A stretch of DNA of 64,000 bases, taken from contig NIVC01000548.1 of the NCBI GenBank assembly GCA_002269645.1, positions 49,693 to 113,692 of the forward strand, written 5' to 3'. Shown piece by piece: positions 9,121 through 52,424 of the stretch. The notes under the pieces are model-generated. The model did no database searches. It worked only from the letters and a program-made list of their open reading frames with translations, and was not told the DNA's origin. Position numbers and translations under genes: made by a program. This DNA is from Macrostomum lignano (taxonomy: Eukaryota). Positions within the stretch are counted from its first letter, which is position 1, and the number at the start of each line of letters is the position of its first letter.

Positions 9121-9429
9121 TTCTGCAAAGTGTAAATTCCAATCCCTTGTTTACTGGGATCCCAGACCTCTAATCCTAGATTCCTAGGATCTCGAACACT
9201 AACAAAAAGCTTGGATCTCAGGAAAGCATTAAATTGCTTTAAAAACATTAAACAACAATGTTTTTCCTGGCATTGCTCCTTGCTTCCACACTGCATTTTC
9301 AAAACTGTGATACAGTTAGGGGTCCCAATCCTGAGATCCAAGCTTTTTGTTAGTGTTCGAGATCCTAGGAATCTAGGATTAGGTCTGGGATCCCAGTAAA
9401 CAAGGGATTGGAATTTACACTTTGCAGAA
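9121..9429. mobile_element. MITE with ~103-bp terminal inverted repeats
   Basis: 9121-9223 is the reverse complement of 9329-9429 apart from a 2-nt indel. No TSD recognised. Confidence 0.8.
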
Positions 9430-22280: not shown

Positions 22281-22404
22281 TAGAATCCGTCTACACAAAA
22301 CACCTTTAAAAATGCTTAAGCATACTCAAAATTGCAGCGCAAGTCCTAAGCGCCCTAATAACAACCGCATCGATAGCCTCTCAAACAGCAACAATAAAAA
22401 AATC

Positions 22405-25257: not shown

Positions 25258-28200
25258 ATGTCGGACCAAGCTGTGGATCTCTACGACGACCTCCCAACCG
25301 GAGGTGAAGTGTCATTTGAAGGCGGCGTCAGCGACGCGAAACATCGCCGTCTAGTGTACATTCGCGTCACCTGCTGGCTGACCGCTGACGCGTCTAGCTG
25401 GGCCGCGCTTCCAGAATCGTTAGTAGAAAGATTCGAAAATGACAGGCGAAGATTAGTCTCCGCTCGGGCATCGATGTTAGTATCCGATGGAGCTTCTTTA
25501 GCTAAACTGCTCGCCGCTAATTCCTCCAATTCGGCATCTGTAGAATCGCCAACTGAATTGTATTGCCGTTGGAGTCACGGTACAATCGATGTTGATTGTA
25601 CTGTTCCCATAGCAACGGTTGCTACGGTATCTAGTAGTGGTACTAATAGATCGAGCTGCGTTAGCGTTGGCATAAAAATCAATTATCTTTGTCCATTGTT
25701 GATTGGCGGCGATTTCGAGGACGATGAAGTCTGGCAAAGATTAGACGCTGGTCTGGTGGATTATGTCCGTCAGCTAGGCCTAACTGTTGCCAAGTGGCGC
25801 CGTCCTGTCGATACTAATTATTATCGATTAACCGAACCATTAGTTGGCGGCCGGCCCCGCCTGATTCGGGTGTTTTATCCCATTGGCGCAGACACAGACG
25901 AGTTGCGTCAGCTGCGTCACGGCTGGCACGAGCAGCTTGGCGTGCCGAAAACTCGACCAGTGTTCTGGCCAGCAATGCGACTGAAGTTCGCTGCAGACCA
26001 GCGGCTGTCTACTAGTGATGCTGGAAATGGAGCTGATGAAGATGAGTCTGGTAGGCTAGTGATTAATCCGCATTTGAAGGCCAAGCCGCAGCCGGAAACA
26101 GCGCCTTGGGTCACCCGGCTAGTGCAAGGAGATTATGCTTATTATCACTATGGCAGCTGCGGCTTCCACGACTCCGGCTGGGGCTGCGCCTACAGGTTGG
26201 TCTTGTTGAATTTGAATGGACTATCTCCGACTTCATGTCATCGATTCCGATCTCCGACTTCAGATCTCCGACACTTCACATCTCTGACACTCCATATCTC
26301 CGACACTCCATATCTCCGACACTTCACATCTCCGACACTCCATATCTTCGACACTCCAAATCTCCGACACTCCATATCTCCGACACTCCATATCTTCGAC
26401 ACTCCAAATCTCCGACACTCCATATCTCCGACACTCCATATCTCCGACACTCCATATCTCCGACACTCCATATCTCCGACACTCCATATCTCCGACACTC
26501 CACATCTCCGACACTCCATATCTCCGACACTCCATATCTTCGACACTCCATATCTCCGACACTCCATATCTCCGACACTCCATATCTCCGACACTCCATA
26601 TCTCCGACACTCCATATCTCCGACACTCCACATCTCCGACACTCCATATCTCCGACACTCCATATCTCCGACAATCCATATCTCCGACACTCCATATCTC
26701 CGACACTCCATATCTCCGACAATCCATATCTCCGACACTCCACATCTCCGACACTCCACATCTCCGACACTCCACATCTCCGACACTCCATATCTTCGAC
26801 ACTCCATATCTCCGACACTCCACATCTCCGACACTCCATATCTTCGACACTCCATATCTCCGACACTCCACATCTCCGACACTCCATATCTCCGACACTC
26901 CACATCTCCGACACTCCACATCTCCGACACTCCACATCTCCGACACTCCATATCTTCGACACTCCATATCTCCGACACTCCACATCTCCGACACTCCATA
27001 TCTTCGACACTCCATATCTTCGACACTCCACATCTCCGACACTCCATATCTCCGACACTCCACATCTCCGACACTCCACATCTCCGACACTCCATATCTT
27101 CGACACTCCACATCTCCGACACTCCACATCTCCGACACTCCACATCTCCGACACTCCATATCTCCGACACTCCATATCTTCGACACTCCATATCTCCGAC
27201 ACTCCATATCTCCGACACTCCATATCTCCGACAATCCATATCTCCGACACTCCATATCTCCGACACTCCATATCTCCGACACTCCATATCTCCGACACTC
27301 CATATCTCCGACACTCCATATCTCCGACACTCCATATCTCCGACACTCCATATCTCCGACACTCCATATCTCCGACAATCCATATCTCCGACACTCCATA
27401 TCTCCGACACTCCATATCTCCGACAATCCATATCTCCGACACTCCATATCTCCGACACTCCACATCTCCGACACTCCACATCTCCGACACTCCATATCTT
27501 CGACACTCCATATCTCCGACACTCCACATCTCCGACACTCCATATCTTCGACACTCCATATCTCCGACACTCCATATCTTCGACACTCCATATCTCCGAC
27601 ACTCCACATCTCCGACACTCCATATCTTCGACACTCCACATCTCCGACACTCCACATCTCCGACACTCCATATCTTCGACACTCCACATCTCCGACACTC
27701 CACATCTCCGACACTCCACATCTCCGACACTCCACATCTTTGACACTCCATATCTCCGACACTTCACATCTCCGACTCTTTATATCCTCAGAAATTCATA
27801 ACTCCGACAATTCATATTTTTGATACTCCATATTTCCGACGGGAAAAATAATCCTCTCCACAGATCTCTGCAAACAATCGTGTCTTGGTTGCGCCGTCGC
27901 GGTGTTATAGACGCCCCCGTGCCTAAACACGAAGCAATCCAACGAGCCTTGGTTGATCTGGGTGACAAGCCGAAGTCATTGATCGGATCTAGGCAGTGGC
28001 TTGGCGCTGTGGAACTGTCCTACGCGTTGAAAAGTTTAACCGGAGTTGCCGCCCGTCTGGTGCACGTGTCTCGGGGTGTTGACCTGCCTGAACAGGTGAG
28101 GTCTTTCATGAGCTTCTTCCTGAGCTTTCGAATTTGAAAATGGGACCAGATTGGGGAGCAGATAGCCAGATTAGGGAGCAGATAGCCAGACTAGGGAGCA

Positions 28201-31554: not shown

Positions 31555-34511
31555 ATGGAGCCGCAGCAGCTGAAGGATGTCGCGGCCGCCAAGATCGACG
31601 AGTCGCGCGAGCTGCTGCTCAGCGTCAGCTCCCGCCTGTGGCAGAACCCGGAGCTGGCGCTGGAGGAGCGAATGGCGCACCAGCTGCTGACGGAGACGCT
31701 GGAGTCGTCGGGCTTCAGCGTGACGCGGCACTTCGTGCTGGACACCGGGTTCAAGGCCGAGTTCGGGTCTGCTCGACCCCACATCGCCGTGATGTGCGAG
31801 TTCGACGCTCTGCCAGGCATCGGGCACGCCTGCGGACACAACCTGATCGCTGAGGTGGCGGTGGGCGCCGGTCTGGGCATCAAGGCGGCCATGGAGGCGG
31901 GCGGCCTGTCCGGCAGGGTCACCGTGCTCGGGACTCCGGCAGAGGAGGCACACGGCGGAAAGATCGACATGATCAGGTGCGACTACTAAGACTTGGTGGG
32001 GCCACGCACGGAACCTAGTCAATAGCATTTTCACTGTAATTGATCTTGCTCTGTTTCTTCAGTGGGTTGTGAAGAATTTATGACTTTAATAGGAAACAGT
32101 AATTATCGATAGTTTTAGAACCTAGAGGTTATGACATACTGGTACTGTGACAGGAAAAGAAGCATGTGCAGAAAATTAGGACACAACAACACAATCTTGG
32201 TGTTATTTTTTAAGCGGCACATTCTAAGAAATTCAATCTCGTTTGTTTTTATCATTGTATTCGGAAACTATCGCAATGCTACTTTCCCGTTAAAAACTTT
32301 ACCATGACAAGAATCGCTAAAGGGCCATTGCTAGTGCGGCAACTCTTGTGACTTTTTAACGACTCAAACGACTGCAATACTACGGAGAGGCGATTTTTGC
32401 GTCACAATTAGCGCGTCACGTCAGTTGCAGAACCGTAAAAGAGTTGCGAAAGAGTCATACAAGAATCGTGTTGGCGCTTACTATTGCTAGAGATACGACT
32501 CAATTCATCAAGCGATGCAATTGCGCTTCAAACGCAACTCGGTGACTCTACAGCGACTTTAGCACGCCTCAAACACGACTTTACGACCCCAGAGTCGTTA
32601 TAACGTTGCTCCAGCGTCGCCCTAGAGGCAATAAAATGCTTGAAGGTAATTCATGAATCTTGAGGGACTCGTTGACGACTTTTTGACGGCTTGTACCGGA
32701 ACATCTCATCGTTTTAGAGTCATTTAGAGACTCTTTCCTATTTTACTTATGTCAACTGCAATGACGCTTAAACGACCCTGGGACGCTTCTTGGCCTGGGT
32801 TTGATAGTCCTACATTCCTTAAAGCACAGAAATGTCTTTACTCGTACAGTGAGTACTAAGAAGCGCATGTCACACGCCGCTTAACACTGTGCAGATCGGC
32901 ATTCTTCACCGATGTGGACGTCGCAATGATGGCGCACCCCTACAAGCTGACTGTGGCTCGTCCGCGTGCGCTTAGCATCCAGGCATTCGACGTCACCTTC
33001 ACCGGCAAGGCGTCCCACGCTGCCGGCTCGCCCTGGGAGGGCCTCAACGCCCTTGACGCGGCCGTGACGGCCTACCAAAGCGTGTCGAACCTGCGGCAAG
33101 AGATGCGGCCGGACTGGCGGGTGCACGGCATCGTGAAGGAGGGCGGCCAGCGGCCCAACATCATCCCTGAGCGAGCTGTGCTGGGTACGCGATGATCCGG
33201 TTTAAAAATAAGTCATGTCCCTTTGATTTTTGTCGAATCCTAACATGCCTACTAATAGTAGAAAAAGCAAGCCATGTGAATCCTAAGTCCTGTGATGTAT
33301 AGGTCTCGTGAAATTTAGGTCCTATACAGTTTAGGTCTTATGAAGTTTAGTTTCTCTGAAGTTTAGGTCCTGTCAAGTTTTGGGTCTATGAAATTTAGGT
33401 TCTGTGAATGTTAGGTCTTGTAAAGTTTTTGGATTTGTAAAATTTAGGTCCTATGAAGTTCAGGTCCTGTGAAGTTTAGGTCCTATGAAGTTAGGATCTT
33501 GTGAAGTTTAGGTCTTGTGAAGTTCAGGTCTTGTGAATTGACCGTTCTAATTTGACTTTCGGCGATGCGATTTTTAGGTCTTGTATAAAAGCGCCCCATT
33601 GTATTTCTACCTCAGATCAGGGCGGTTAGTCTTTCACAGCGGAATTGACCTGTTGCCACTCTCTCGCGGTCAATGTCTTACCAGGTGACTCATCAAGATG
33701 CATTGGACATAGTACATAAAAGAGTCCCTGTTTTCCTGATTACAAAACTAAATGCTTCAAGTGCGCACCATATATTTCCAAGCCCTCCAAGTTTGATTGT
33801 CATTACAGGGTTTTCATTCTAGAAGTTGTTGACATTTAGGAATTTTTATTTACACTTTGCATATAAAATCACAAAGCAAGTAGAGTCCCAGAAAGGCCAT
33901 TTTACAGTTAAAATCACAAAGCGATAATAGCCCTAAAAGGGCCGTTTTAAAGTTCGAATCAATCATCCAAACAGATAAATAGACACTCCAAACGAAAGTT
34001 TGCCTATCCCAGATGTACCTGCTCTCCCGCAGAGTACTACATCCGCGCTCCAACAGACAAAGAACTCGCCGTTTTGCGTCGCAAAGTGGATGCCTGCTTT
34101 GACGCTGCCGCTCTCGCCACTGGCTGCAGTTGGCAGTCCGAGATAAACGGACACGCCAACAGTAACTTGATAACCAACGAGTCTTTGATTAAATTTTACA
34201 CGAAGAACTTGGTCAGATTGAATGAGCCTTTCCTAGAATCAGAGCCAGATGCGGTTATCGGCTCCACAGACATGGGCAACGTGAGCTACGAGGTGCCGTC
34301 AGTTCATCCAATGTTCTCAGTTGGTGGCCAGGCGGCTATTCACACACGCGATTTTGCTGAGCTGGCTGGCGACCCAGCTGCTCAGCCGCACGCCCTGACT
34401 CAGGCCAAGGCGCTGGCTATGACTGGCATCGATATTCTGACGCAGCCTGGCGTGCTCGAACAGATCTGGGAAGGTTTTCGAGCCGATATGGCCAGGCTGA
34501 AGGACTTTTAG
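31555..34511 (+). CDS. PM20D2: Peptidase M20 domain-containing protein 2, paralog 1 (396 aa)
   Basis: Exons 31555-31976, 32895-33184, 34033-34511. Motifs EFDALPGIGHACGHNLIA, GTPAEE, MAHP, GKASHAAGSPWEGLNALDA, GSTDMGNVS. Confidence 0.92.
32286..32799 (+). repeat. GACTC/GAGTC-rich interspersed element, ~510 bp, in PM20D2-1 intron 1
   Basis: Begins CCCGTTAAAA.C.TTACCATGAC and ends GGACGCTTCTTGGCCT, as do the copies at 34586-35925. Confidence 0.75.
33290..33540. repeat. 16-bp degenerate minisatellite (AAGTTTAGGTCCTGTG)
   Basis: About 15 units in PM20D2-1 intron 2. Confidence 0.85.
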
Positions 34512-34585
34512 CGCTATGTTTACTAGGAGTTCTTGGACAGCTAAAAGAAGTTGGTTTTCAAGATAGTTTCCTGCATAACGTTTCA

Positions 34586-35925
34586 CATTGAAAAGGTTAC
34601 TGTCACCAGAATCGCTAGAGTCACTGCAAACAACTCAAACGACTGTGGTGCGACAGATAAGGCTCAAACCAGTTGCAGAATTGTAAAAGATTCGCAAAAA
34701 GCCGTCCAAGAGTCGTTGTGTCAGAGTTTGACCTAAGTACACTACACGTCGATTCAATTTACTAAGTGACGCAACTCAGTGATTCTACGGCGACTCCAGC
34801 ACGCCTCAGATCTGACTCTGCGGCCCCAGTGTCATTTTAAAAGCGTCATAGGTCACTTGCGTCGCCCCAGAGTCGCAGACAATAAAACACTTCGAATTGA
34901 CTCTCACTCGTAGGCGACTGCCTCTTTTACAACTTTTTGGCGACTTGTACCGTGACATCTCGTCGTTTTAGAGTCGTCTAGAGGTCACTTTTTTCTTATT
35001 TTATCTATTATCTGCACAAACTGACTCTGAAACAACTCTGGGAGAAGCAACTGAGTCTGGGATGCTTCTTGGCCTACCCGATGAGAACAGCACCTAGGCC
35101 CAGAGTCACTTGCGTCGCCCCATATTCGTTTCAGAGTTGTTGCAGATGACACAGGTAAAATAAGAAAGAAGTGACTCTAAACGACTAAACCGACAGGATG
35201 TTACGGTACAAGCCGCCAAAAAGTCAAGCCGCCAAAAAGTCAAGCCGCTCAAGAATCGCCAATCCAATAAAACGCTTTGGAGCGTTTTATTACCTGCGAC
35301 CCTGAAACGACTCTGGGGCCGTAAAGTCGTGTTTGAGACGTTCTAGAGTCACTATAGAGTCACTTGATGAATCAGAGTCACATCTCTAGAGAAATTTCAG
35401 CGCCAACACTTTTACGGTTCTGCAACTAACGCAAAAGTCGCCTCTCCGTCGCATTGCAGTCGTTTGAGTCGTTAAAAAGTCACCAGAGTTGCCACAGAGT
35501 CACTAAAGTCACTAGAGAGTTGTTTGCAATGACTCTTTAGCGATTCTTGTCATGGTAACGTTTTAACGGGTCAAGTACACTAAATGGACAATCGAGTTGT
35601 TATAAATGCGAAATAAGATTCTATTTTACTATGTGAGGCAACTCAGTGATTCTAAAACGACTCTAGCTCGCCCTAGATACGACTCTACGGGGGCCCCCAG
35701 AGTCGTAAAAGCGTCCCAGCTGGTCACTTGCGTTGCCCCAAAGTCGCGGACAATAAAATGCTGCTTTAAAATGACTCTTGCATAACTCTTTGCTGACTTT
35801 TGGCGACTTGTACCGTGACATCTCGTCGTTTTAGAGTCGTTTGGAGTCTCTTCTTTCCAATTTTACCCATGTCATCTGAAACTACTCTGGGGCAACGCAA
35901 GTGACTCCGGGACGCTTCTTGGCCT
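34586..35925. repeat. Cluster of three GACTC-rich elements: forward 34586-35075, inverted 35096-35570, partial forward ~35630-35925
   Basis: Shared termini and internal blocks recognisable on alternating strands. Confidence 0.75.
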
Positions 35926-36902: not shown

Positions 36903-37202
36903 CACTCAGCAACATTGAAAAGTTTCCACCCTCGCGCCAGCCAGTTTCAAAAATGGTTTTTGTCGCCAGACTTGTGCCATAGACGATTGATGATTTCGTC
37001 AACACGCACTTGTGCCATAGACGATTGATGATTTCGTCAACACGCACTTGGGCCATAGACAAAAACTTGGGTCATGACGCCAGACAGCTCGAAGGAAACA
37101 GTCACATGGAGCAGACAGCAGCTGCTTAAAGGAGTCTAAAATCCACGTTCGCAACCGAACGCAATGGTTCGCCAAATGACCGACCTGGTACGAGCGCGGG
37201 CC
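36903..37202 (+). mobile_element. Left arm of an internally deleted Tc1/mariner element (TIR plus transposase codons 1-13)
   Basis: TA|CACTCAGCAACATTGAAAAGTTTCCACCCT terminus. ATG at 37164 gives MVRQMTDLVRARA, which continues in frame after the LTR element. Confidence 0.8.
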
Positions 37203-38066
37203 TGTAGAGTGTTCTACCTCCCGTTAAAAAAGGAAAAAAGAAGATAATCGTATAATACTACTATAAGTAAGTAAGTACACGCATGTGCGCCTAAGCTTTG
37301 AATGAATCACGCTACCAGAAAAAGATGTTACCAGAATAATACGCCATGAGCCATTTTCCCCTTTTAGCGCAACACGTGAATTGTCATGATACTATTTTGG
37401 ATCAAAAACTTGTCTATAAATACAAGCGATCTGAAGCGGTACCGGAGCCATTCTCCCCACGGAAGAGGAGCGCTCCGAAGAGGAAGCCTTAGGAGGACTT
37501 CCTGATCTACCAAGTCAATCGAGACTCGGTCGAGTTGTTGCGGTAAGCCTTCCTTATTTGCGCCCGTTGTGTTAGAGACGTCTCGCTCAAGTCTATTGAG
37601 ACTTGAGTCTAATTGAGTCTGTTGAGACTCTTGAGTCTGTTTAGACTCCATTGGTTGCAGTCTCCAGAAGGACTGCCCCTGATAGATCTTAGAGGACTAT
37701 CAGTGGTTTCCGGAGCTATACCTAGAGTGCATAGAGGCACTGCTAGAAGAAGGAGGCTTAATTTAGACCGCAGTTTGGCGCAGGGTACCCATTGTTGCTA
37801 CGAGGCCTCTGATTGGTCCTGACGGAAGATACCGGCCGGAAGAACTTATCGGAAGTACAAGAGGAACCAGGACCAGAGCAACTGAAGAATCAAGGCGCCT
37901 GATCTACGAGATCTACTGACAAGTTCCTAGCGAGAACTACTCAAGAAATTCAAATCCGGATTAAAGGTAATTGAATACCTTCGTTTGACTTACTGGGTTG
38001 CCTAGCTGTTGAGCTAGAAGTGATTGTTCCTTGATTATCGAAAGTCGGGTAATAAGGAACACATCA
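37203..38066 (+). repeat. 5' LTR (864 bp)
   Basis: TGTAGAG...ACACATCA; TATAAATA at ~37415. No difference from the 3' LTR seen by eye. Confidence 0.97.
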
Positions 38067-38068
38067 AT

Positions 38069-38080
38069 TGGTGATCTCGC
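38069..38080 (+). promoter_or_regulatory. Primer-binding site TGGTGATCTCGC
   Basis: TGG 2 nt downstream of the LTR. Complement ...GAGAUCACCA is most like a tRNA-Trp 3' end (tRNA identity is inference). Confidence 0.75.
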
Positions 38081-38775
38081 CCTCTCGGCACTACTCAAAC
38101 TTTGAGCAATAGCCCTGATCAAGCTATTGTAAAGTGACGACAGAGCGACTTCATTAATTTTGCGCGCACGTGTTAGAGTTAACACTTTTTAAGTCCGTTA
38201 CGTTTTGAAACTCGAGTAAAATTTTGGTGTACAGGTTTGAGCACCTGTCAAATTTGAGTACAGTTTGAGCACGCGTGTTAAATTTTGTTTTAACGAGCTC
38301 GAGCAAGTGTGAGTTAAAATAAAACCGAAATTAAATTCATCGGTACACTGAAAACAAACCGAAAATAAAAGAATCGTCGACGCAAAACAAACAAAAAATA
38401 ACTGAAACATTTTGCCGGCACAAAAACAAAACCGAAATTAATTGAAACTTCGTGGAGAGCGGAGTTAATTGACAAAAGAGAGAGAGTCAAAGAAGAGAAA
38501 AAGACTTTGCAAAACAAGAAGACAAAGCCCACTTCAACTTGAAGATACACTTTGCGGGACGCCGCATAAGTGCGAAATCAGCAAGCGAACAGAACAAGTT
38601 CATTTGAGGACAACCAGTGGCAGCAAGCCACACCGCATCCGAGGCCAGCGAATAACAAATCGACACCACAAGACAATTCGTTACAGTCGAGGTTTATTCC
38701 GAGGCAAACACCACACTGGACGATCCGTTACAAATCGATCCAGATCTTGAACTACCGTTCTATCCTATCAACAAC

Positions 38776-40247
38776 ATGGCGCGGCGCAATCCAACGGTAC
38801 ACAGAGACATCAAAGAAACGGTCGGTACCTTCTCGATGGAGAAAGATTTTAACACATTTGTCGACCACTTTGACCTGGTATGTAGGGAATACAACCTACA
38901 AAATCCAGAGAAGCACAGCTGCTGCCACCTCTTCTCCAAGGTACTGCGCGAGAAATTTACGGCAAGCTGGATGCGGCAACACAGCAAAATTATCCAGCAC
39001 TAATCATTCAACTGCGCGCGCATTTCAACCGTTGCGGCACAAACAGATCAGTGCTGCTGCACAAGTTGCATAACAGAAGGATGCAAGCAACAGAATCCTT
39101 CCTCGCCTTTGTGGACGATATCCGCCAGATAATTAAGGCACTGCATCAGCCACCGCTGCAAGCTGCGGACCAACCACCACTGGGAGCGGCAGAATTGGCC
39201 GCCAGAGAAAGACAACGATTGATGGATCGTGAACAAAACCTCATCCTGCACGTAATAAACAACGCACAGCCGTCACTTCGGGATAGACTTTTGCGTGAAA
39301 ATATCGAAACCGAAGAAGACCTTTTGCGTTGCGGAATGCAATGGGAAGCCAGTGCCCCATTAATGACGACAGGCAACAATGAAGTGCAGAAACTGACGCA
39401 GCAACTAAACAAGTTAATGCAGCACCAGACAGCTGCTATCGCCGAACAAAAAAGACGAAATGAACAAGCCTCAGCCAGATGTTACTACTGCGGACAAGAA
39501 GGACATTATCAGATTAATTGTCCTCATTGGTCAACAAGATACGACAAGCCGCGACAGATATTCAACAATCAGAAGCCGCAGAAACCATGGCAGCACTATC
39601 AAAATCGCCAACAACAAGGAATGAGACGCTTCGGAAATGATAGACGCTTCGGAAATAATGACCGCTCCGGAAATGATGGCCGCTTCGGAAACGAAGGCCG
39701 CTTCAGAAGTAATGGCTACAGGCCACGCAACGTCAGATACACACAAAGACAGCCGACGCAAGCAATGCCACGATACGCGAATGCCATCACGTACACACCG
39801 GAAAATGAACAGCAAGAACAGCAAGTGTTCACAATTGACGACTTGGAAATGGACTTCACAGTCCCGGAACTTGACATCAGCTTGATCGAAAAGAAGACGA
39901 CGCACGAGGACAACACTGACAACACAGAAGAGACGAATGAAACCGAAATGATCAAATTAAAAGAGACCACCGGAGACAGCAGAGAAAACAGGAAGAAAGT
40001 AAATCACAAGACAAGGGAGGAGGCGGAGAGCGACATCGGCAACGAAGAAAAGATGAAAACCGGCGAAGAAAACAACTATGAATCGACAACAGTGGATGAC
40101 GACAAAACGAGCATGAAAGACAAAGAAATGAAAGAAGAAGAAGAATGTAGAAGTTACGGCAACGACCACGACTGCGAGGTGCGTGATGACACGAACGACT
40201 ACCAAGCCGAAAGAGGAATGCAGGAAGAACGAGAGCGGAGAATCTAA
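38776..40247 (+). CDS. gag: Gag (one -1 frame break at ~38986-38989), with CCHC zinc knuckle, RFGN repeats and acidic tail
   Basis: Capsid-like FSMEKDFNTFVDHFDLVC; after the shift, NYPALIIQLRAHF...; CYYCGQEGHYQINC. Confidence 0.85.
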
Positions 40248-40294
40248 GTTCCGACAGCGATCAAGGCTACGAAATACAATGGAAAGATGAAGAA

Positions 40295-42562
40295 ATGGAA
40301 AAAGAACAGGTGAAAGAAAAGCCGAGTTCCGACAGCGACGAATGCTACGAGATCCGATACAAACGAAATGGTGAAGCCTATATTCAAACGGTCGACTACA
40401 AGACAGAGAAAAGATACCAAACGCAATGGAGTGAAACAACGGAAACATCGGAAGAAGCCGCAGACGAAGATAATGAAATAACCAAAAAGCAAAGCGAATC
40501 AGAAGCCTTCCGCCTGGATCAGCCAATGGAACAACCGAAAGAATATGATGCGGACATGGAAGATAACGAATGGCGATCGCAGCCAATGCCAGCAAGGACA
40601 ACGGCAAAATCCAAGAAGTGGAAAAACTGGCTATTCTGGATCATCGTGATACTACTGATAGCAGTAGTCGCCAAAGCAACGGCAACGGAAAAGCCAATGA
40701 TTTGTCCAACGGATGCGCATATCCAACCGATGATCTACAAGATACCAACCGACATCAAATGCAGTTACTTCAAGACAAACCAGACAAAACCAAAGAAGAT
40801 TACACTCGATCTCTACAAGGCTAACATCAAGAAGCATCGACAACACGGGATAGTATGCTTCAGAGACAAGCACCTGGTGGAAAAAGTTTGGCGCGGACAA
40901 TGGAACCGGATCCGATTTAAACAACATGAGCTACATGTGTCGCACGCGGAATGCCTACAATGGAATCAAACACTATTTTCAAAGGATGGTGAACTGGAAC
41001 CAGATGAGAAGGTCGGCAACGCACAGCTGTTCAGAACAAAGAATTCAGCCAACGGTCGATATATTCACTTCTTCGGAAAATGGAAAGAATATATGGCACG
41101 CAACAGCTACTTGATCAGAAATATTCCATTCTACTACAATCCGTACGAGAAAATGGAATCGTTACAGCTGCAACTAAGCGAATGTCGATACAGTGAAGGA
41201 TGGTGTCCAACGCCGATTCTACGGAAGGAAGAACTACACAGTCTACCACTGAGTCCAACATATCATCAAGACTATCGATGGCAGATTGAGCACAGAGCAC
41301 AATCACACTATGAGGAACCGTACAATTCACGACAATATTTCTTCGCATGGGAAGTAGAGCCGGAAATTGACTGCAAGCTTCAAAAGTATCACACAGTTGA
41401 AGGAGGACTACTGTCGAATACGTTTTTGGCAAAGCAGGAGACTTGGCCTGACGTTTCAAAAGAACCGGTTGAACAGGAACTCAAATGCAAGGATACGGAC
41501 AAGACGCTATTCATCTCGGAGCAAGAAATACCAGTCTATGTAAAGGATGACGACAAGCGAACCTTCCTGACGATCATAAACGGAACGTATCAACAACAAG
41601 AAAGGCGACGACGCGACATAGAACGTCCACGATTGGTGTCGAACCGACTACTGTCAGCAAAGATCACGGCTTTAGATCACAATCTGCATAACCAGCTAAA
41701 TCACCTACATCGATCACTGGTTCAGTTAACTTGCAAGATGCACGCAATCAACTTGAACTACGCAAGACAAAACTACTATGTCAACCCTACGATGACATTT
41801 CGCAAGATCACTGGAATGAGAGAGGTTCTGGCAATTCCGATATATGGACATCTCCTGATATACAAGTGCACGCCGATACAGCACTTTAACATCTTGCCGT
41901 CAAACACGTCAACAACCTGCTACGATAAGCCAAGGATTGAAGCGTTCTACGAAGGAAAACGAATTCAGGGATTCTTGGACACGGTACACAACATCATCGT
42001 TGGCACCGCAATACCGAGACCTTGCACCACGGCAGTAAACTACTATCAACTGGACAATGCACTACACGTCATCAAAACAACTGGAACGACAGCAAACGTC
42101 ACAGAACCGGAAGTAATCGTCGACGAAAACTACGACATGGAGGATTTGAAAATCCGATTCAACAGAACGAAGTATACGCCATTCGCCGATATCCAACTTG
42201 ACGAGATAACACCAGGATGGACGATCAACGACTTCTTGCAAGCGTTCATCACCCAACGCAAGATGATTCACCAGCTGTTCACAAGAAAGGACAAAGGAAC
42301 CGGGACAGGAAGATTTCCCGTCCTTGTTTCAATGGACAGCGCCATCAAATCATTTTGGACAAATAGCTTCTGGGAGCTGCTCAATGGAAGAGGCAGTCTC
42401 TATCAAGGATTCATCTTCTACGGTGCTTGCATTGTGTGGATTGTCACGGCAATCTTCATCATTTCATCGATCGTACGGTGCTTCAGTCAAACTTGTCCAA
42501 GAGCTAAGAAGACAGTGAATGCCATAATGCAAAGAACGACAACGGAAGCGACAACAGTTTAG
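40295..42562 (+). CDS. env: Env-like class III viral fusion glycoprotein (gB/chuvirus-G-like); frame open from 40190
   Basis: Hydrophobic signal segment WLFWIIVILLIAVVAKATA (40628-40684), Cys-rich ectodomain (CP..C, VS..EC, CRYSEGWC), furin site RRRR (41603-41614), VNPT..R and CYDKP.I motifs reminiscent of gB, several N-glycosylation sequons, TM at ~42407-42475. Confidence 0.8.
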   Translation: MEKEQVKEKPSSDSDECYEIRYKRNGEAYIQTVDYKTEKRYQTQWSETTETSEEAADEDNEITKKQSESEAFRLDQPMEQPKEYDADMEDNEWRSQPMPARTTAKSKKWKNWLFWIIVILLIAVVAKATATEKPMICPTDAHIQPMIYKIPTDIKCSYFKTNQTKPKKITLDLYKANIKKHRQHGIVCFRDKHLVEKVWRGQWNRIRFKQHELHVSHAECLQWNQTLFSKDGELEPDEKVGNAQLFRTKNSANGRYIHFFGKWKEYMARNSYLIRNIPFYYNPYEKMESLQLQLSECRYSEGWCPTPILRKEELHSLPLSPTYHQDYRWQIEHRAQSHYEEPYNSRQYFFAWEVEPEIDCKLQKYHTVEGGLLSNTFLAKQETWPDVSKEPVEQELKCKDTDKTLFISEQEIPVYVKDDDKRTFLTIINGTYQQQERRRRDIERPRLVSNRLLSAKITALDHNLHNQLNHLHRSLVQLTCKMHAINLNYARQNYYVNPTMTFRKITGMREVLAIPIYGHLLIYKCTPIQHFNILPSNTSTTCYDKPRIEAFYEGKRIQGFLDTVHNIIVGTAIPRPCTTAVNYYQLDNALHVIKTTGTTANVTEPEVIVDENYDMEDLKIRFNRTKYTPFADIQLDEITPGWTINDFLQAFITQRKMIHQLFTRKDKGTGTGRFPVLVSMDSAIKSFWTNSFWELLNGRGSLYQGFIFYGACIVWIVTAIFIISSIVRCFSQTCPRAKKTVNAIMQRTTTEATTV

Positions 42563-45500
42563 AACTAACAGAAACTGCACATTGTGAGGTTCAAGGGCAA
42601 CCGACACTAGCAACGCGGCTATATCCATCGATTCCGACAACACCAACGGCACCAAGGATACAACCACCCAACTATCAAGCAGAACAGCACGAGCCAAAAT
42701 GGCCGGAAAACTACGTCTGTACGCTACACGCCGAGATTGGCAAAGCAATGGCTCAGGTCATTGTCAACAACTTGCCATGTCGAGCACTACTGGATTCAGG
42801 CAGCTCGATCACAGTCATCTCGCAACAATTATGCAACAAGCTACGACTCGCGGTACGACCAGCAGCAATCGCAGTTGCAGGAGCAGGAGGACATTCACTC
42901 AACATCCTAGGAAAAGCAGATATCGACTTGAAAATTGCTAATAAACAGCTGACGGTCCCGACGTACATCATCGACAGACTACCAAACCAAGACGTCATCG
43001 TTGGAATCGACACGTTCAAGCAGCTTCAACTACCATTGACCTTCGACTTCAACAAGCAAACGTTTAGGATCGACACGGTGGAGCAACCGCTGATCAACCA
43101 GATTCGAGTACTACCGAAAGTAACTCTGCAGCAAGATGTCATTATCCAGCCTGAAAGCGCATGCTGGGTCAGAGCGAAAACGACCAGCGCGGCAGATGAA
43201 GCAATGATATTTGATCCACACAGGAGAGTCACGGCAAAACATCAAATCATGATGCCTACGGCACTAGTGCTGGTTGCAAAGGATAAGCAACTGCCAGTAC
43301 AAATCTTCAACCCGAACACAGAAACGGTTCATCTACGACAAGGAATGTGCATCGGTCATCTCAACACCCAAGCATCGGTTATGCTGATTGAACAAGCGAC
43401 TCCACGACTAACAGAGGAAGAATTTCAAAAGAAGATCAATTTGGATGACAGCCCGATTACGGAACAGCAAAAGAGGAAAGTTCGACAGCTGTTGTGGAAG
43501 TACAACGAAGCCTTCTGCCATCATGATTACGACATCGACGAGCCAAGGACATCAAACAGGAAATCAAACTTCTGCCGCACACGGAACCAATTCAGTGCAA
43601 GCCGTACCCGATCGCCAAGCATCTGCAACAACACTTTGACGAAATCATCGATAAAATGCTAAAGCACGGCATCATCAGCAAAGCTATTTCGGCTTACTCC
43701 TCACCGTGCCTACTGGTACAGAAGAAGGAGACAAACGAAAGACGACTCGTATGCGACTTCAGACTGTTGAACAAGTACATACCGACGGATCAGCAAAGCC
43801 TACCGAAGATCTCCGAACTACTAGCAAAGCTCAACACGGCAAAATTGTTCACGGTGTTCGACCTACGTCATGGATTTTGGCAAATTGAAATCGAGAAAGA
43901 GTCACGACAGTACACGGCTTTCAAAACCTACAATGGACAAGTATACGAGTACAATCGATCGCCGATGGGACTCAGCAACAGCCCAGCAACGATGAGCCGA
44001 CTAACAGCATACATGCTTGCAGGATGCACGAACCTGTTGCACTATGTTGACGACATCTTGGCCCACGGAGAAGACTTCGACGACTCTATGAAGCGACGGA
44101 GAAGGCCCTCGCGCTTATACAACGTCAAGGTCTGAAGCTACAACCAACTAAATGCAAATTCTTCCGAGACAACGTGCGTTACCTGGGACATCAGGTGACA
44201 GCCAAAGGAATCTCACCGGACCCAGACAACGTGGAAAAGGTGAAGAAGTTTCCTACGCCAACCAGTATAACGAAGGTCCAATCATTCCTTGGACTTGCGC
44301 AATACTTCAGGAAGTTCTTACCTAACTTCGCAAAGACAGCAAAGCCACTGTACGACCTGCTCAAGTTCGACAAATGGAAGCAAGACAACTGGACACAGAG
44401 ACAACAGGAAAGTTTCGACGAAATCAAACGACAGCTGACATCAGACGCACTGCTACAGCATCCGGACTTCGACAAGCCCTTCATCATCGAGACAGACGCC
44501 TCAGGAACGGGACTCAGAGCAGTCCAACTACAGGAAACCGAGGACAAGAAGGAACGACCTATTGCTTACGTCAGTCGAGCACTCAAACCAAATGAGACAA
44601 AGTGGTCAGCTACGGAACGAGAGCTACTAGGAGTCTTGTTCGCCCTGCGACAGTTTCATTACTACATCTATGGTTCTCCAATACAGACGATAGTACGCAC
44701 GGATCATGCACCATTGACCTACGTCGTAACTACAAAAGGACAGACCAACAACCGACTCATCAGGATGACACTCAAGATACAGGATTACAACTACAAACTC
44801 GTCTACAAACCAGGAATTACCAACAAAGCCGCGGACGCCCTGTCAAGAGCCTATGAAGTCAACGCCATTCATCCAATCCCTAACATCAAGGAGTTGGTGG
44901 ATGAAACCGAGCGCGACAACTTCTACCAAGCGGTTAAAGACGACGACAAGAACATCAAACTTAGCCCATGGAACGAAAATTCCTACGCAAGCAACGACAA
45001 CACCTAACAATCAATAAGTCACGGCTCTACTGGATGAGCGACAATAAACCTAAGATCTACGTACCATATTCGTTTCGGCAAGCAATTCTCAACGAGCTGC
45101 ACGACAACCCACTCGCTGGACACCTGTCGGCCGCAAAGACCATCGCGAGAGTGGAACAATACTACTTTTGGCCAACTATGTACGGCGACATCAAGCAGTA
45201 TTGCAACAACTGCCATTCATGTGCTGCATCAAAGACAGGACGACGACAGAAACCGCAGCTACAGTCCATTCCGAAGTCGACTACAATGGACTGTCTAAGC
45301 ATCGACATCACCGGACCACTGCCACCGAGCTGTCTCCAGGGCATCGCCTACACCTACATCCTAACCGCCTTGGACATCTTCTCGAAGTTTGCTATCGCCA
45401 TACCGATACCGGACATCACAGCTCAGACAGTGGCAATGAGTTTCTTCAACGAAATCATTTGCAAGTACGGCACGCCGAAGAACCTCACATCGGACAACGG

Positions 45501-46254
45501 ATCGCAGTTTACATCGCAGCTGTTTCAGCAAGTCGTAAGGATTCTCAACATTACGCAGATCTACACATCGACCTACAATCCGAAGGCAAACATGGTTGAA
45601 AGGTTTCACCGCAACCTGCACGAGATGATTACACACTTCGCGCACCAACAGCCGGAAGACTGGATCATCTACCTGCAATCTGTAACAATGGCCTACAACA
45701 GCGCTATTCATCGATCAACGGACAATACGCCATTCTTCCTAATGTTTGGACGAGACTTCCAACCGCCGAATCTGCTCGCACAGCAATTGCTACCATCGCA
45801 GTACGTGGAAGTACCGACTTCCATTCAGAAATTTGTCACGCAGCTACACCTCGCATGGAAGATCGCCAAGCACAACATTGACAACCAGGTGGCTCTGACC
45901 ACCGGCAACGACGCGAGATCGACAACCCTGACGGCCGGCGACATCGTTTACCTACACTACCCGCCGCAGCAGACGCATAAACATGCACAGAAGTATAAAG
46001 GACCCTATCGAGTGGTCCAACTAACGTCACCGACAACGGCACGCCTGGCTAATGTACAAGATCCACATCAGCACCAGTTCTACGTACACATTCATCGACT
46101 AAAGAAGATCAACACTGACACCGCGACGTTTCTACCGACATTAGACAACGCGGATCGCACGCGTTCAACGAACCGCCACATCGCGACAAAGCACGAGGAG
46201 ACTCAAACGACAGATGTGAGCCAGCCACATGGCTACAACCTACGACCACGCTAG
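42508..46254 (+). CDS. pol: Pol: late-domain-like linker, protease, RT, RNase H, integrase (three -1 breaks at ~43537, ~44081, ~44965)
   Basis: LLDSGS; YSSPCLLVQK, RLVCDFRLLN, DLRHGFWQI, YVDDIL; TDASG, TERELLG, RTDH; H..GH..C..C zinc finger, DITGP, SDNGSQF, VERF, KYKGPYRV. Confidence 0.93.
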
Positions 46255-46374
46255 AGTTTCGAGAGCAACCCCGTGTAGTGACCGGGATAAAGAATAGCAC
46301 TACAGCTTCGCAAGCTTGTCGTAAAAGGCGACTAATCCGAGCGACACAAAGACAGCGACAAATTGACAACAATT

Positions 46375-46749
46375 ATGAGCAACGCACTGTCGAAACAGGC
46401 GCCCCAGCCTCAGCAGCTATATGACTGCCCGATATGTTTAACTGATGACTTGGCTGTCAAGCCACCGACTATTTGCATCAACGAACATAAAGTTTGCGGA
46501 CAATGTTTAAGCGATTCACATTATATTCAGCCATGGCAGAATTGTCCCCTCTGTAGAGATAGTTTGCGACAATGTGCCTATTGTTATTCTTGGCGCACGT
46601 TTCAATATTGTAACCACCAACATTTTATTTGCATGCACTGTTTGAAGCAAACCGCTAGTAGGGGCGTTATAGGATGCCCCTTATGTAATAGTATGCCGCG
46701 AGACTGCACGTTTCGAAAGTGGTGTCGGATCAAACCTGATGCCACTTGA
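46375..46749 (+). CDS. Accessory ORF with two tandem C3HC4 RING-like fingers (124 aa) inside the LTR element
   Basis: CPIC..CINEHKVCGQC..CPLC followed by CAYC..CNHQHFICMHC..CPLC; intact ATG to TGA. Confidence 0.8.
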   Translation: MSNALSKQAPQPQQLYDCPICLTDDLAVKPPTICINEHKVCGQCLSDSHYIQPWQNCPLCRDSLRQCAYCYSWRTFQYCNHQHFICMHCLKQTASRGVIGCPLCNSMPRDCTFRKWCRIKPDAT

Positions 46750-46914
46750 TGTCTACGCGATATTCGAGTTTTGACCGCAATATGTACTGAAAAGTTTTTA
46801 GAGTTTTGACCAAACCCTCGCTTCACTAGACGCGCACAAAATCAATTGTTTATTTCCTATATTAACTGATCACCACAGAATTTTATTGTTAAAACTCGGG
46901 ACGAGTTTTTTCGT

Positions 46915-46926
46915 AAAAAAGGGAGA
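46915..46926 (+). promoter_or_regulatory. Polypurine tract AAAAAAGGGAGA
   Basis: Ends 3 nt upstream of the 3' LTR. Confidence 0.85.
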
Positions 46927-46929
46927 TTT

Positions 46930-47793
46930 TGTAGAGTGTTCTACCTCCCGTTAAAAAAGGAAAAAAGAAGATAATCGTATAATACTACTATAAGTAAGTA
47001 AGTACACGCATGTGCGCCTAAGCTTTGAATGAATCACGCTACCAGAAAAAGATGTTACCAGAATAATACGCCATGAGCCATTTTCCCCTTTTAGCGCAAC
47101 ACGTGAATTGTCATGATACTATTTTGGATCAAAAACTTGTCTATAAATACAAGCGATCTGAAGCGGTACCGGAGCCATTCTCCCCACGGAAGAGGAGCGC
47201 TCCGAAGAGGAAGCCTTAGGAGGACTTCCTGATCTACCAAGTCAATCGAGACTCGGTCGAGTTGTTGCGGTAAGCCTTCCTTATTTGCGCCCGTTGTGTT
47301 AGAGACGTCTCGCTCAAGTCTATTGAGACTTGAGTCTAATTGAGTCTGTTGAGACTCTTGAGTCTGTTTAGACTCCATTGGTTGCAGTCTCCAGAAGGAC
47401 TGCCCCTGATAGATCTTAGAGGACTATCAGTGGTTTCCGGAGCTATACCTAGAGTGCATAGAGGCACTGCTAGAAGAAGGAGGCTTAATTTAGACCGCAG
47501 TTTGGCGCAGGGTACCCATTGTTGCTACGAGGCCTCTGATTGGTCCTGACGGAAGATACCGGCCGGAAGAACTTATCGGAAGTACAAGAGGAACCAGGAC
47601 CAGAGCAACTGAAGAATCAAGGCGCCTGATCTACGAGATCTACTGACAAGTTCCTAGCGAGAACTACTCAAGAAATTCAAATCCGGATTAAAGGTAATTG
47701 AATACCTTCGTTTGACTTACTGGGTTGCCTAGCTGTTGAGCTAGAAGTGATTGTTCCTTGATTATCGAAAGTCGGGTAATAAGGAACACATCA
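46930..47793 (+). repeat. 3' LTR (864 bp)
   Basis: Copy of 37203-38066 at offset 9727. Confidence 0.97.
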
Positions 47794-48132
47794 GGCCATT
47801 GGCATGCTGGACGCTGGGATGTCCATCCGAGCTGTTGCTAGCCAAATTGGGCGGTCGCACACAGCAATCCGCAAACTGCAGATCAAGTGCAGAGAAACGA
47901 GCAGCGTGGTGCTCACTCCTTTGACGACTCCTTTGAAGGCGAATCCGACAGCACTGCCTAGTAACAGGAATGTAGCCCTGCATCGGTTGGAGTGCACTTG
48001 CTCTTTGCTGTTCCTTTGCTTCGTTCGAATCCGGATTATATATTTGTCTATGGCTCAAACCACAAATATCTCCACCCACCAAAACGTTGACCCTTCGCGC
48101 GCTAGGGTGGAAACTTTCAATGTTGCTGAGGG
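47794..48132 (+). mobile_element. Right arm of the internally deleted Tc1 element
   Basis: IGMLDAGMSIRAVASQIGRSHTAIRKLQIKCRETSSV (Tc1 N-terminal HTH), then the DDE region is lost. TIR AGGGTGGAAACTTTCAATGTTGCTGAGGG; the right TA is not preserved. Confidence 0.8.
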
Positions 48133-48278
48133 GCTCGTATTAATACCTGTATGAAACTTTCAATTTGTTTTTTTTTGTCTTCTGATCTAATATTTTTTTT
48201 ACTTCTGAAGTTTACCTAGCTTAATATCAGTTACGAGTACTATTAGTTTACATGACTGCATTTTCAGCGACTGCTCTG

Positions 48279-49560
48279 ATGAATCCGCAGCAGCTGAAGG
48301 ATGTCGCTGCCGCCAAGATCGACGAGTCGCGCGAGCTGCTGCTCAGCGTCAGTTCTCGCCTGTGGCAGAACCCGGAGCTGGCGCTGGAGGAGCGAATGGC
48401 GCACCAGCTTCTGACGGAGACGCTGGAGTCGTCGGGCTTCAGCGTGACGCGGCACTTTGTGCTGGACACCGGGTTCAAGGCCGAGTTCGGGTCTGCTGGC
48501 GCCGGGCGGCCCCACATCGCCGTGATGTGCGAGTTCGACGCTCTGCCGGGCATCAGGCACGCCTGCGGACACAACCTGATCGCCGAGGTGGCGGTGGGTG
48601 CCGGTCTGGGCATCAAGGCGGCCATGGAGGCGGGCGGCGTGGCCGGCAGGGTCACCGTGCTCGGGACGCCGGCAGAGGAGGCACAGGGCGGCAAGATCAA
48701 CATGATCAATGCGGGTTTTTTCAAAGACGTTGACGTCGCTCTGATGGCGCATCCAGACCGCATGACAACGGTACACAGCGCTCACTTGAGTCTGAGTAGT
48801 ATTGAGGTTATCTTCACCGGCAAGGCGTCCCACGCGGCCGGCTCGCCCAGGGAGGGCCTCAACGCCCTTGACGCGGCCGTGACGGCCTACCAGAGCGTGT
48901 CGAACCTGCGGCAGCAGATGCGGCCGGACTGGCGGGTGCACGGCATCGTGAAGGAGGGCGGCCAGCGGCCCAACATCATCCCTGAGCGAGCTGTGCTAGG
49001 TCAGGTTATTAGTGCAATCTGTAGTGCGGATTAAAAGTGCAAAACTAAGCTCTTGCATCTTGGTGACGCAGCAAACGCTTCAACTTCCAGAGTACTGCAC
49101 CCGAGCTTCAACTGGCGGCGACTCGCAACTGCTGCTCAACAAAGTGAAGCAATGCATGCATGCGGCTGCCATGGCAACCGGATGCGAGTGCCTCATCTCA
49201 GAGTCGGAACCTGAGTACAAGAATGTGATTCCCAATCGCGCTCTTGCTGGCGCCTACAGTGCGAACTTGAGAGCTCTGGGTGTTGAGCACACTCAGCTGT
49301 ACCCGGAGCCCACCGGCTCAACCGACATGGGCAATGTGAGCTACGAGGTGCCGTCCATTCATCCGATGTTCTTCATCGGTGGCGACACTGCCACGCATAG
49401 TGCGGGATTTGCGGTGCTGGCCGGAGCTGCTGAGGCGCAGCGTTACGTCCTGGAGCAGGCCAAGGCTCTGGCGATGACCGGCATCGATGTGCTCACGGAG
49501 CCTGCGCTGGTGCAGCGATGCTGGGAAACTTTTCAGGAGGATCTGAGCATCTACGGCTAA
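48279..49560 (+). CDS. PM20D2: PM20D2 paralog 2 (396 aa)
   Basis: Exons 48279-48999 and 49091-49560. Same M20 motifs, with GIRHACGH and GSPREG variants. Confidence 0.9.
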
Positions 49561-49810: not shown

Positions 49811-50211
49811 TTGTGATGGGAAACTCGAAAATGTGTTTTTTCGTTGCCTAGTGCAAATTTTTCTAACCAAAATAGTTGGTACGAAAGCTTTATTAAAGTC
49901 TTTTTTGCTAAAAAATTACTGAATTGCAATGTTTATATTTTATCATGAAGCAATCGAGAAAATATCCTCATGAAAACTGTTTTAATCGTAATTTGAATTA
50001 AGTGGACTAATTCCAATAGAACTATTTGATAGTCCTAAATATACATAATTGAACATTTTTCCAGTTCCAGGCGTTTTCGCTCTCAAATATGTATTTTCAG
50101 GTTATTTCTGCTTACTTGTTAGTAGCGAGATACAGTTTCTTTAGTCCGTTATTCCGCTACAGGTCTCATTGTCTCAGGTTTTCTACCAACCGCATTTCAG
50201 CGACTGCTCTG

Positions 50212-52424
50212 ATGAATCCGCAGCAGCTGAAGGATGTCGCGGCCGCCAAGATCGACGAGTCGCGCGAGCTGCTGCTCGGCGTCAGCTCCCGCCTGTGGCA
50301 GAACCCGGAGCTGGCGCTGGAGGAGCGAATGGCGCACCAGCTGCTGACGGAGACGCTGGAGTCGTCGGGCTTCAGCGTGACGCGGCACTTTGTGCTGGAC
50401 ACCGGGTTCAAGGCCGAGTTCGGGTCTGCTGGCGCCGGGCGGCCCCACATCGCCGTGATGTGCGAGTTCGACGCTCTGCCGGGCATCGGGCACGCCTGCG
50501 GACACAACCTGATCGCCGAGGTGGCGGTGGGCGCCGGTCTGGGCATCAAGGCGGCCATGGAGGCGGGCGGCCTGGCCGGCAGGGTCACCGTGCTCGGGAC
50601 GCCGGCAGAGGAGCACTACGGCGGAAAGATCAACTTTATTGAGGCCGGCTTCTTCAAAGACGTTGACGTGGCCCTCATGGCGCACCCGTACAAGCTGACG
50701 GCAGTGCACGTGCCGCACCTCAGTGTGGCTTTCCTCCGAGCAACGTACACCGGCAAGGCGTCCCACGCTGCCGGCTCGCCCTGGGAGGGCCTCAACGCCC
50801 TTGACGCGGCCGTGACGGCCTACCAGAGCGTGTCGAACTTGCGGCAGCAGATGCGGCCGGAGTGGCGGGTGCACGGCATCGTGAAGGAGGGCGGCCAGCG
50901 GCCCAACATCATCCCTGAGCGAGCTGTGCTGGGTGAGTCGATTTGATAAAAAGTTATTCAACGTAGCTCTGTTAAATTGACTGCTGAAAATAATGTTTGC
51001 TGAACGTCAAATGGTGCAGTTACCATTGTATACTGATGATGTAAGGCCCCCTGTTGTTTCCTTGTGCTAAAGCCCCTTGATCCTAAAGCCCCTTGGTGCT
51101 GGCGCCCCTTGGTGCTGGCGCACCTTGGTGCTGGCGCCCCTTGGTGCTGGCGCCCCTTGGTGCTGGCGCCCTTGGTGCTAAAGCCTCTTGGTGCTGGCGC
51201 CCCTTGGTGCTATAGCCCCTTGGTGCTGGCGCCTCTTGGTGCTGGCGCCCCTTGGTGCTGGCGCCCCTTGGTGCTGGCGCCTCTTGGTGCTGGCGCCCCT
51301 TGGTGCTAAAGCCCCTTGGTGCTGAAGCCTCTTGGTGCTAAAGCCCCTTGGTGCTAAAGCCCCTTGGAGCTAAAGCCTCTTGTTGCTAAAGCCCCTTGGT
51401 GCTGGCGCCCCTTGGTGCCAAAGCTTCTTGGTGCTAAAGCCCCTTGATGCTGGCGCTCCTTGGTGCTGGCGCCTCTTGGTGCTGGCGCCCCTTGGTGCTG
51501 GCGCCCCTTGGTACCAAAGCCCCTTGGTGCCAAGGCTTCTTGGTGCTAAAGCCCCTTGATGCTGGCGCTCCTTGGTGCTGGCGCCCCTTGGTGCTGGCGC
51601 CTCTTGGTGCTGGCGCCTCTTGGTGCTGGCGCCTCTTGGTGCTGGCGCCCCTTGGTGCTGGCGCCCCTTGGTACCAAAGCCCCTTGGTGCTAAAGCCTCT
51701 TGGTGCTAAAGCCCCTTGGTTACAAAGCCCCTTGGTGCTAAAGCCTCTTGGTGTTAAAGCCCCTTGGTGCTAAAGCCTCTTGATGCTAAAGCCTCTTGAT
51801 GCAGGAGCCATCTGTCATGGTTGAAGCTGAACTTGCACTTTAAATTCTATGGCTTTCTTGACGTATTACGTTTTAGTTATTGTTTAGAAGTTAAGCACCT
51901 TAAATCTGCTTCGATCCGAAACAATGTTTCTTTCAACATCAATTTCGTCAGACTATTTCGTCCGCTGTCCCAGCGATCGCGAACTGGCCGTACTCCGAGC
52001 TCGAGTTGAAGCCTGCCTCCGGGCTGGCGCGGTCGCCTCCGGCTGCGAATGCAGCATCGAGGACATAAGCCGCGGCTACAGCAGCGTCATCTGCAACGCG
52101 CCACTCGGAGCTGCCTATAGCGCCAATCTGACCGCTCTAGGTGTTGAACACGTTGGCATCACGGAACTGCCGTCGGGTTCAACAGATATGGGCAACGTTA
52201 GTTACACTGTGCCGGCAATCCATCCCATGTTCTACATGGGCGGCGACGCGCCCAACCATAGCGTGGAGTTCACTCGATTTGTTAACCTACCGGAGGCCCA
52301 GCCGTATACTCTGGCTCAGGCCAAGGCCCTGGCCATGACTGGCATTGACATCCTGACTGGGCCCGAGCTGCTGGCCAAGTGTGAGGCTCAGTTTAAAGCC
52401 GATTTGGCTCGGTTCGCTGCCTAA
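50212..52424 (+). CDS. PM20D2: PM20D2 paralog 3 (397 aa)
   Basis: Exons 50212-50932 and 51952-52424; all M20 motifs intact. Confidence 0.92.
51065..51800. repeat. 17-bp minisatellite (CCCTTGGTGCTGGCGCC / CCCTTGGTGCTAAAGCC)
   Basis: About 42 units in the PM20D2-3 intron. Confidence 0.93.

Follow-up and report, generated by a model that had tools for sequence, protein, structure and literature searches.

Organization of the element and its surroundings

An LTR retroelement of 10,591 nt lies at positions 37203–47793 (+) of the window, which is the whole 64-kb stretch of DNA analysed here. Its two LTRs (5′ LTR, 37203–38066, +; 3′ LTR, 46930–47793, +) are identical over 864/864 nt, with a start-to-start spacing of 9,727 nt. 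The 5′ LTR has TG...CA ends and is preceded by a GGCC target duplication; the same GGCC follows the 3′ LTR. The primer-binding site (PBS) is located at 38069–38080 (+) and a polypurine tract, recognized from sequence, at 46915–46926 (+).

Gag and the long acidic Gag-Env linker (38776–40630, +) begin at ATG 38776, contain one CCHC knuckle (about 39480–39527) and are interrupted by two frame breaks; relatives P0004 and P0005 span the same region in single ORFs. The Env ectodomain part (40631–42406, +) carries an internal signal/anchor (about 40631–40672) and a furin-like RRRR sequence (41603–41614), and it is followed by the C-terminal transmembrane (TM) helix (42407–42463, +), which has a hydropathy of 2.4 and is a helix in the structure model. 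After a stretch of 42464–42723 (+), described below, come the aspartic protease (PR; 42724–43044, +; Pfam PF13650, E 1.7e-10), with DSGS at 42793–42804, and RT, RNase H and integrase (43527–46254, +; Pfam RVT_1, RT_RNaseH, Integrase_H2C2 and rve), which are distributed over three offset frames. The Pol order by Pfam is PR-RT-RH-IN, and env sits between gag and pol. One extra 124-aa RING/zinc-finger ORF (46375–46749, +) is located between integrase and the 3′ LTR, inside the element. It contains RING-like and further cysteine clusters, its zf-RING_2 match (E 0.002) is below cut-off, and most of its Atlas neighbours (score 0.91–0.92) are RING proteins of viruses; it is possible that this ORF encodes an E3 ligase carried by the element.

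The Pfam match of Env (PF24664, E 1.4e-4) is below cut-off. Among the PDB matches listed by Foldseek for the Env model, all are herpesvirus gB, with HSV-1 gB as the best one (E 1.2e-8). Against BFVD, the model matched entomopox, chuvirus-like and nyamivirus glycoproteins, with E values of 6e-13 to 1e-11 for the entomopox and chuvirus proteins (best 5.8e-13). Env is predicted to be of gB-like class III fold; the mean pLDDT of the model is 51 and the TM-scores are about 0.2, and support for the fold comes from the better-modelled C-terminal half.

The flanks of the element (about 37165–37202 and 47794–47900, +) resemble the N-terminal helix-turn-helix of a Tc1-like transposase, which the insertion would have interrupted. 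Two near-identical peptidase M20 (PM20D2-like) segments are found at 48225–49034 and 50053–50946 (+), 1,933 nt apart. Tandem satellite arrays of 16-nt units are present at about 26100–27900, at 33266–33569 and from 51057, with up to 97 registers. One near-perfect 300-nt palindrome (9121–9429) and long inverted repeats located about 3 kb apart (32280–35577; related arm near 19270–19359) look like non-autonomous DNA transposons. The frame at 22258–23172 (+) gave a COX5B-like match (E 4.6e-6), which is below cut-off, and no tRNA was found in the 64-kb window.

Nematode gag-env-pol elements were reportedly first described by Sacco et al. in 2022. GAG-ENV-POL elements with gB-type Env are described in PMC13524379 for nematodes, bryozoans and flatworms, and supplementary file 1 of that paper (eLife 108449) lists 16 copies of Platyhelminthes_Rhabditophora_Mlig_errantivirus_2 (Mlig_errantivirus_2 hereafter). 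The entry agrees with the window element in LTR spacing (9,727 nt), total length (10,591 nt), LTR length (863/864 nt), 12-nt PBS (the reverse complement of the window PBS is the listed sequence), gag-env-pol order and gB-type Env. Because the LTR geometry, the total length and the PBS equal the published entry, the family is, by geometry, already known. From its sequence features, the element is a GAG-ENV-POL HSV/gB-type Ty3/gypsy errantivirus, the Ty3/gypsy placement being by domain order; the class is known and the family is Mlig_errantivirus_2, matched by geometry, length and PBS. The window proteins are 98.5–99.6% identical to the Macrostomum lignano records ALD16272.1 and ALD16273.1, which points to this flatworm as the host. 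Different from the published family, the window copy contains six frame offsets.

Three late-domain motifs downstream of the Env transmembrane helix

Within the stretch between the Env TM helix and the protease, LYPSI, PTAP and PPNY are clustered in 19 residues (42619–42675), upstream of the pol-frame ATG, just as the earlier note had read them. LYPSI (42619–42633, +) is a YPxL/I ALIX-type motif that also fits the YxxPhi sorting motif. PTAP (42643–42654, +) is of TSG101 type and is the best conserved of the three, and PPNY (42664–42675, +) is a PPxY NEDD4-type motif found only in the Mlig_errantivirus_2 family. The cassette belongs to the frame 42508–43662 (+); it lies 51 codons past the end of the Env TM and upstream of both the first ATG of the frame (42748) and the protease DSGS (42793). 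All three motifs match the PT/SAP, PPxY and YPxL/I late-domain consensus sequences. The + strand frames of the element contain no P[TS]AP besides PTAP and no PPxY besides PPNY, and no other spot in the six frames of the 64-kb window has all three classes inside 30 residues. In shuffles of the 96-residue sibling tail, all three classes appeared together 20 times in 1,000,000; with shuffling restricted to the 19 residues, the count was 380 in 1,000,000.

LYPSI had been regarded as an imperfect YPxL. It need not be one, since Vincent et al. 2003 (cited in PMC3346829) name YPXL/I in their title as an ALIX consensus. The cassette was also considered as a retroviral Gag late domain in the strict meaning of the term. 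This was rejected because the motifs follow the Env TM and the gag frames of the element contain no P[TS]AP or PPxY; the cassette could function as a Gag L domain does without being one.

In the window copy, the coding region is split into seven frames by six offsets (38886–45007). The env frame ends with a stop at 42560–42562 and the motifs are located in the next frame; the break falls within the overlap 42508–42562. With RT and IN outside continuous ORFs, the window copy falls outside the definition of intact errantivirus copies in PMC13524379, whereas the sibling records are covered by it; its assignment to the family is unaffected. The offsets are all of one direction and the LTRs are identical, which makes assembly error more likely than real mutation. 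The total length still equals the published 10,591 nt despite the six offsets. A slippery heptamer is absent from five of the six frame overlaps, including env/pol. Programmed frameshifting at env/pol was rejected; the sole heptamer (38953, in gag) was read as out of gag phase.

The link of the motifs to Env comes not from the window copy but from sibling records that are continuous across the junction. The P0003 cluster has 10 members; three (P0003, P0055 and P0056) span the TM-protease junction, and the other seven begin downstream. All three spanning members contain the Env TM, the three motifs and the protease in one ORF. Taking all same-family records that cross the junction, three of four have this arrangement, the exception being P0002. 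P0002 is without 33 residues that are exactly the cassette segment and match one 99-nt in-frame GT...AG interval (42584–42682). Several gaps occur elsewhere inside this record too, and about 1,600 residues at its N-terminus are unrelated, for which reasons we read P0002 as an automatic gene model; the gap is probably an artefact of that model and not a real splice. The gene model of P0054 starts at ATG 42748; in the structure model, the first protease strand starts upstream of it, at 42724. A single ORF covers Gag and Env in P0004; in P0005 (PAA86625.1), which represents a second M. lignano family, one ORF of 2,852 residues covers Gag, Env and Pol.

Because the siblings are continuous through the TM, the motifs and the protease, we assign the segment 42464–42723 (+) as the Env cytoplasmic tail/Env-PR linker of a polyprotein. 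The proposal that the motifs reside here and not in Gag is thus borne out by the three same-family records, and the doubt raised beforehand, that this frame segment might be untranslated, is countered by their continuity from the TM into the protease. The tail is without secondary structure in the model, with pLDDT of 22–38 before the first protease strand, which is a weak indication of disorder given that no homologous rows cover this part.

One putative protease site, VNA/I (42515–42526, +), is located 18–21 residues after the TM. VNA/I-type sites are cut by Ty3/gypsy proteases. Across the seven coding frames, the NAI tripeptide has only three occurrences, one following NC (39780), one following the TM (42518) and one at the RNase H-integrase junction (44861). 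A similar site, defined by a loose pattern with no chance control, is present at tail positions 17–24 in P0005, P0007, P0008, P0009 and P0020. A protease site after the TM as a feature of all relatives was rejected, being visible in about 5 of 30 only. The cassette may later be removed by the protease of the element.

Conservation of the motifs among Env relatives

The Env search gave 45 relatives. P0002, belonging to the same family, was set aside, and 14 were dropped (four end before the anchor, six end before the TM and four are without profile match), leaving 30. P0019, whose TM was mis-called and which has PTAP after the TM, was excluded from the main count, which thus covers 29 tails. 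Hydropathy served to locate the TMs, and at least two of these assignments (P0019 and P0029) are doubtful. In word-index protein searches, neither Env nor the Env alignment, tried at longer and at near lengths, matched anything beyond P0002, P0003 and P0004; the comparison is therefore based on the 45 Env relatives and the cluster members.

P[TS]AP is present in 5 of the 29 distant tails, compared to 0.17 expected from shuffles (0/200,000 simulations); the shuffles ignore kinship, and the three near relatives therefore do not count as independent events. LYPx[LI] is found in 2 of 29 (0.06 expected, P 0.0016), as LYPTL in P0005 and LYPKL in P0021, and LYPSI is kept in P0003, P0055 and P0056. 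Enrichment of PPxY was not found (1/29 tails, 0.50 expected, P 0.40). Counting any of the three motifs, the number is 7/29 (0.72 expected, P 4e-6), and 22 of the 29 tails have no canonical motif. Conservation across related elements, which the earlier note had put forward as a check, thus holds for P[TS]AP and weakly for LYPx[LI]; it fails for PPxY and for the triple. As a family-wide feature, the triple cluster was rejected, because no other family among the 29 distant tails carries all three motifs.

Several controls were performed for P[TS]AP. Its density is 5 in 2,802 tail residues versus 3 in 33,619 other residues. Eleven scrambled motif orders gave six matches in total; three of these are [TS]APP, two of which overlap a true motif. 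Five of 29 PxxP sequences are P[TS]AP, compared to 0.26 expected. For the tyrosine motifs, YPx-hydrophobic is found in 5/26 tails (1.07 expected, P 0.003), whereas generic Y[not P]x-hydrophobic is not enriched (8/26 tails, 10.4 expected).

Among the 31 Env segments placed on a tree, those of P0005, P0006 and P0007 group with the query family (support 98/93), P0006 being on a long branch. All four members of this clade have P[TS]AP, 61–70 residues past the TM (63–70 in the three relatives). Their Env segments are 25–27% identical, and their tail alignment scores are within the range of shuffled tails. Outside the nearest clade, P[TS]AP is present in 2/26 tails (0.15 expected, P 0.010), or 3/27 with P0019; one of these carriers, P0034, is from Haemonchus contortus. 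On the whole tree, the motif label is not significantly clustered (six changes; 37/500 shuffles are as low). In four motif-bearing relatives (P0006, P0007, P0020 and P0034), the ORF stops 79–99 residues past the TM, which indicates that the motif belongs to Env and not to Pol.

Gag-Env linkers contain a motif in 2 of 17 cases. P0005 has a further PSAP at residue 566, giving one motif on each cytosolic face, and P0004 has PPRY. In the tail of P0007, PTAP runs straight into PPEF, a form close to the overlapping PTAP/PPxY of Ebola virus (PMC7995964).

Possible roles of the cassette

PT/SAP binds TSG101, YPXnL binds ALIX and PPxY binds NEDD4-type ligases, and late domains are position-independent and act in combinations (PMC7995964; PMC2958808). 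On sequence grounds, we think it probable, with some reserve, that the cassette provides TSG101 and ALIX docking sites and recruits ESCRT for particle release, with these sites placed on Env rather than on Gag. Unbroken family members would make one polyprotein that crosses the membrane twice, a topology that we infer from the two hydrophobic segments. Gag would be in the cytosol, followed by the internal signal, the gB-like ectodomain in the lumen and the TM, with the tail and Pol again in the cytosol. At the budding membrane, the tail would then be on the inner side, with its motifs facing the cytosol. PTAP would dock TSG101/ESCRT-I, LYPSI would dock ALIX and, in the Mlig_errantivirus_2 family only, PPNY would dock a NEDD4-type ligase. 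With ESCRT-III brought to the neck, the enveloped particle would be released at the cell surface or into the endosomal lumen. As Gag is without P[TS]AP or PPxY, the tail would be the obvious entry point for ESCRT. Counting against ESCRT docking are the 22 motif-free tails, the lack of PPxY enrichment and the restriction of the triple to one family, together with the missing segment of P0002, the break between TM and motifs in the window copy, the unclustered motif label on the whole tree and the presence of motifs in 2 of 17 Gag-Env linkers as well.

As trafficking or turnover signals of Env, the same motifs could be functional without any role in the scission of capsid particles: YPSI would act in endocytosis as YxxPhi, PPNY in ubiquitination and PTAP in sorting into multivesicular bodies. 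We regard this, the main competing reading, as rather unlikely, although several points speak for it. The YxxPhi consensus is an adaptor-binding sorting signal, and YPSI fits it. The motifs are on the tail of a membrane protein, a place in which such motifs serve the endocytosis of cellular proteins, and both ubiquitylation and sorting to multivesicular bodies are described for HSV gB (PMC7995964). However, the enrichment of YPx-hydrophobic but not of generic tyrosine motifs points to ALIX over AP-2, and P[TS]AP is the strongest signal of all. In addition, the precursor would hold the tail in covalent linkage with both Gag and Pol, and sorting of the tail into a budding vesicle would then nearly equal particle budding.

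Chance occurrence, in a disordered spacer that is rich in proline and threonine and separates the TM from the protease, is improbable for the cassette as a whole. The motifs are short, most relatives are without them and PPNY is confined to one family; within the family, the 19 motif residues show no difference versus five in the other 61 residues compared, numbers too small for a claim of selection. Against coincidence, the triple is rare even when only its own 19 residues are shuffled, and divergent relatives again carry motifs, similarly spaced from the TM, which stand up to the composition, scrambled-motif and PxxP controls. Coincidence is largely refuted for PTAP; it stays likely for some single matches, possibly including PPNY. 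Very improbable, finally, is a cassette that is not translated with Env, whether through a Pol start at ATG 42748, an Env end at 42560–42562 or a GT-AG intron (42584–42682): the stop and frame offset of the window copy, the start of P0054 and the 33 residues missing from P0002 would fit, but the three named siblings are continuous, a start at 42748 would lose the first protease strand, the env/pol overlap is without slippery heptamer, P0002 is a gapped automatic gene model with unrelated residues, and the six one-way offsets with identical LTRs fit assembly error.

ESCRT docking by the Env tail would have partial counterparts in known systems. In MLV Gag, all three motif classes are present (PSAP, LYPAL and PPPY; PMC4848597), and HIV-1 p6 contains PTAP and YPXnL (PMC7995964). 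Like these Gag late domains, the cassette would combine the three classes in a short, probably disordered stretch of a precursor that a protease cuts; different from them, it is C-terminal to the Env TM, between Env and protease, with none in Gag. Bluetongue virus NS3 carries PSAP and PPXY (PMC7995964) and is a membrane glycoprotein (PMC6949946), but it is non-structural, is not a fusogen and is not fused to Pol. The traffic of herpesvirus gB depends on the MVB pathway and gB is ubiquitylated; unlike the window Env, gB is not fused to Pol, and the sections of PMC7995964 on gB describe no late-motif cluster in its tail. Release of foamy virus needs the glycoprotein, and ubiquitination of the cytoplasmic part of Env regulates particle release (PMC3705266). 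Foamy virus differs from the window element in having its PSAP in Gag and an Env that stands alone as a protein and belongs to another class.

A wider reading, which we offer only tentatively, concerns processing of the tail. Cuts at VNA/I and at the protease N-terminus would produce one 67-residue motif-bearing peptide and a short Env tail. In MLV, the viral protease trims the cytoplasmic tail of Env at maturation by removing the R peptide. The putative VNA/I site, with its short distance from the TM, resembles this arrangement; the difference is that the piece removed in the window element would carry late motifs. In content, the predicted peptide is like HIV p6 or MLV p12, whereas in position it is like the MLV R peptide. 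Budding of gag-env-pol errantiviruses could then be centred on Env, with two cuts freeing a p6/p12-like peptide and trimming the tail in an R-peptide-like manner, and with scission, Pol release and arming of the class III fusogen coupled by one segment.

The main text of PMC13524379 analyses ectodomains, not tails; the terms late domain, ESCRT, budding, cytoplasmic, single ORF and polyprotein do not occur in it. No paper describing late-domain motifs on the Env tail of a Ty3/gypsy element came up in our literature search, which mainly covered open-access journals, and nothing on the Env of the window element is contained in the sections consulted of PMC4604429 and PMC12801592. The element is known; late motifs on its Env tail are apparently undescribed, PTAP being conserved in divergent relatives and the triple being specific to the family.

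Envelope-carrying Ty3/gypsy elements across invertebrates are known from genomes alone. Conserved motifs of TSG101 and ALIX type on the Env tail are evidence, at the sequence level, that some of these elements were selected for membrane scission, and their placement hints at how envelope-carrying retroelements could exit cells. The motifs point to TSG101, ALIX and VPS4 as host genes, in an organism, M. lignano, that is RNAi-tractable and has 16 listed copies of the family. If the proposed role is true, late domains would be extended beyond capsid and matrix proteins, to a fusogen tail joined to Pol.
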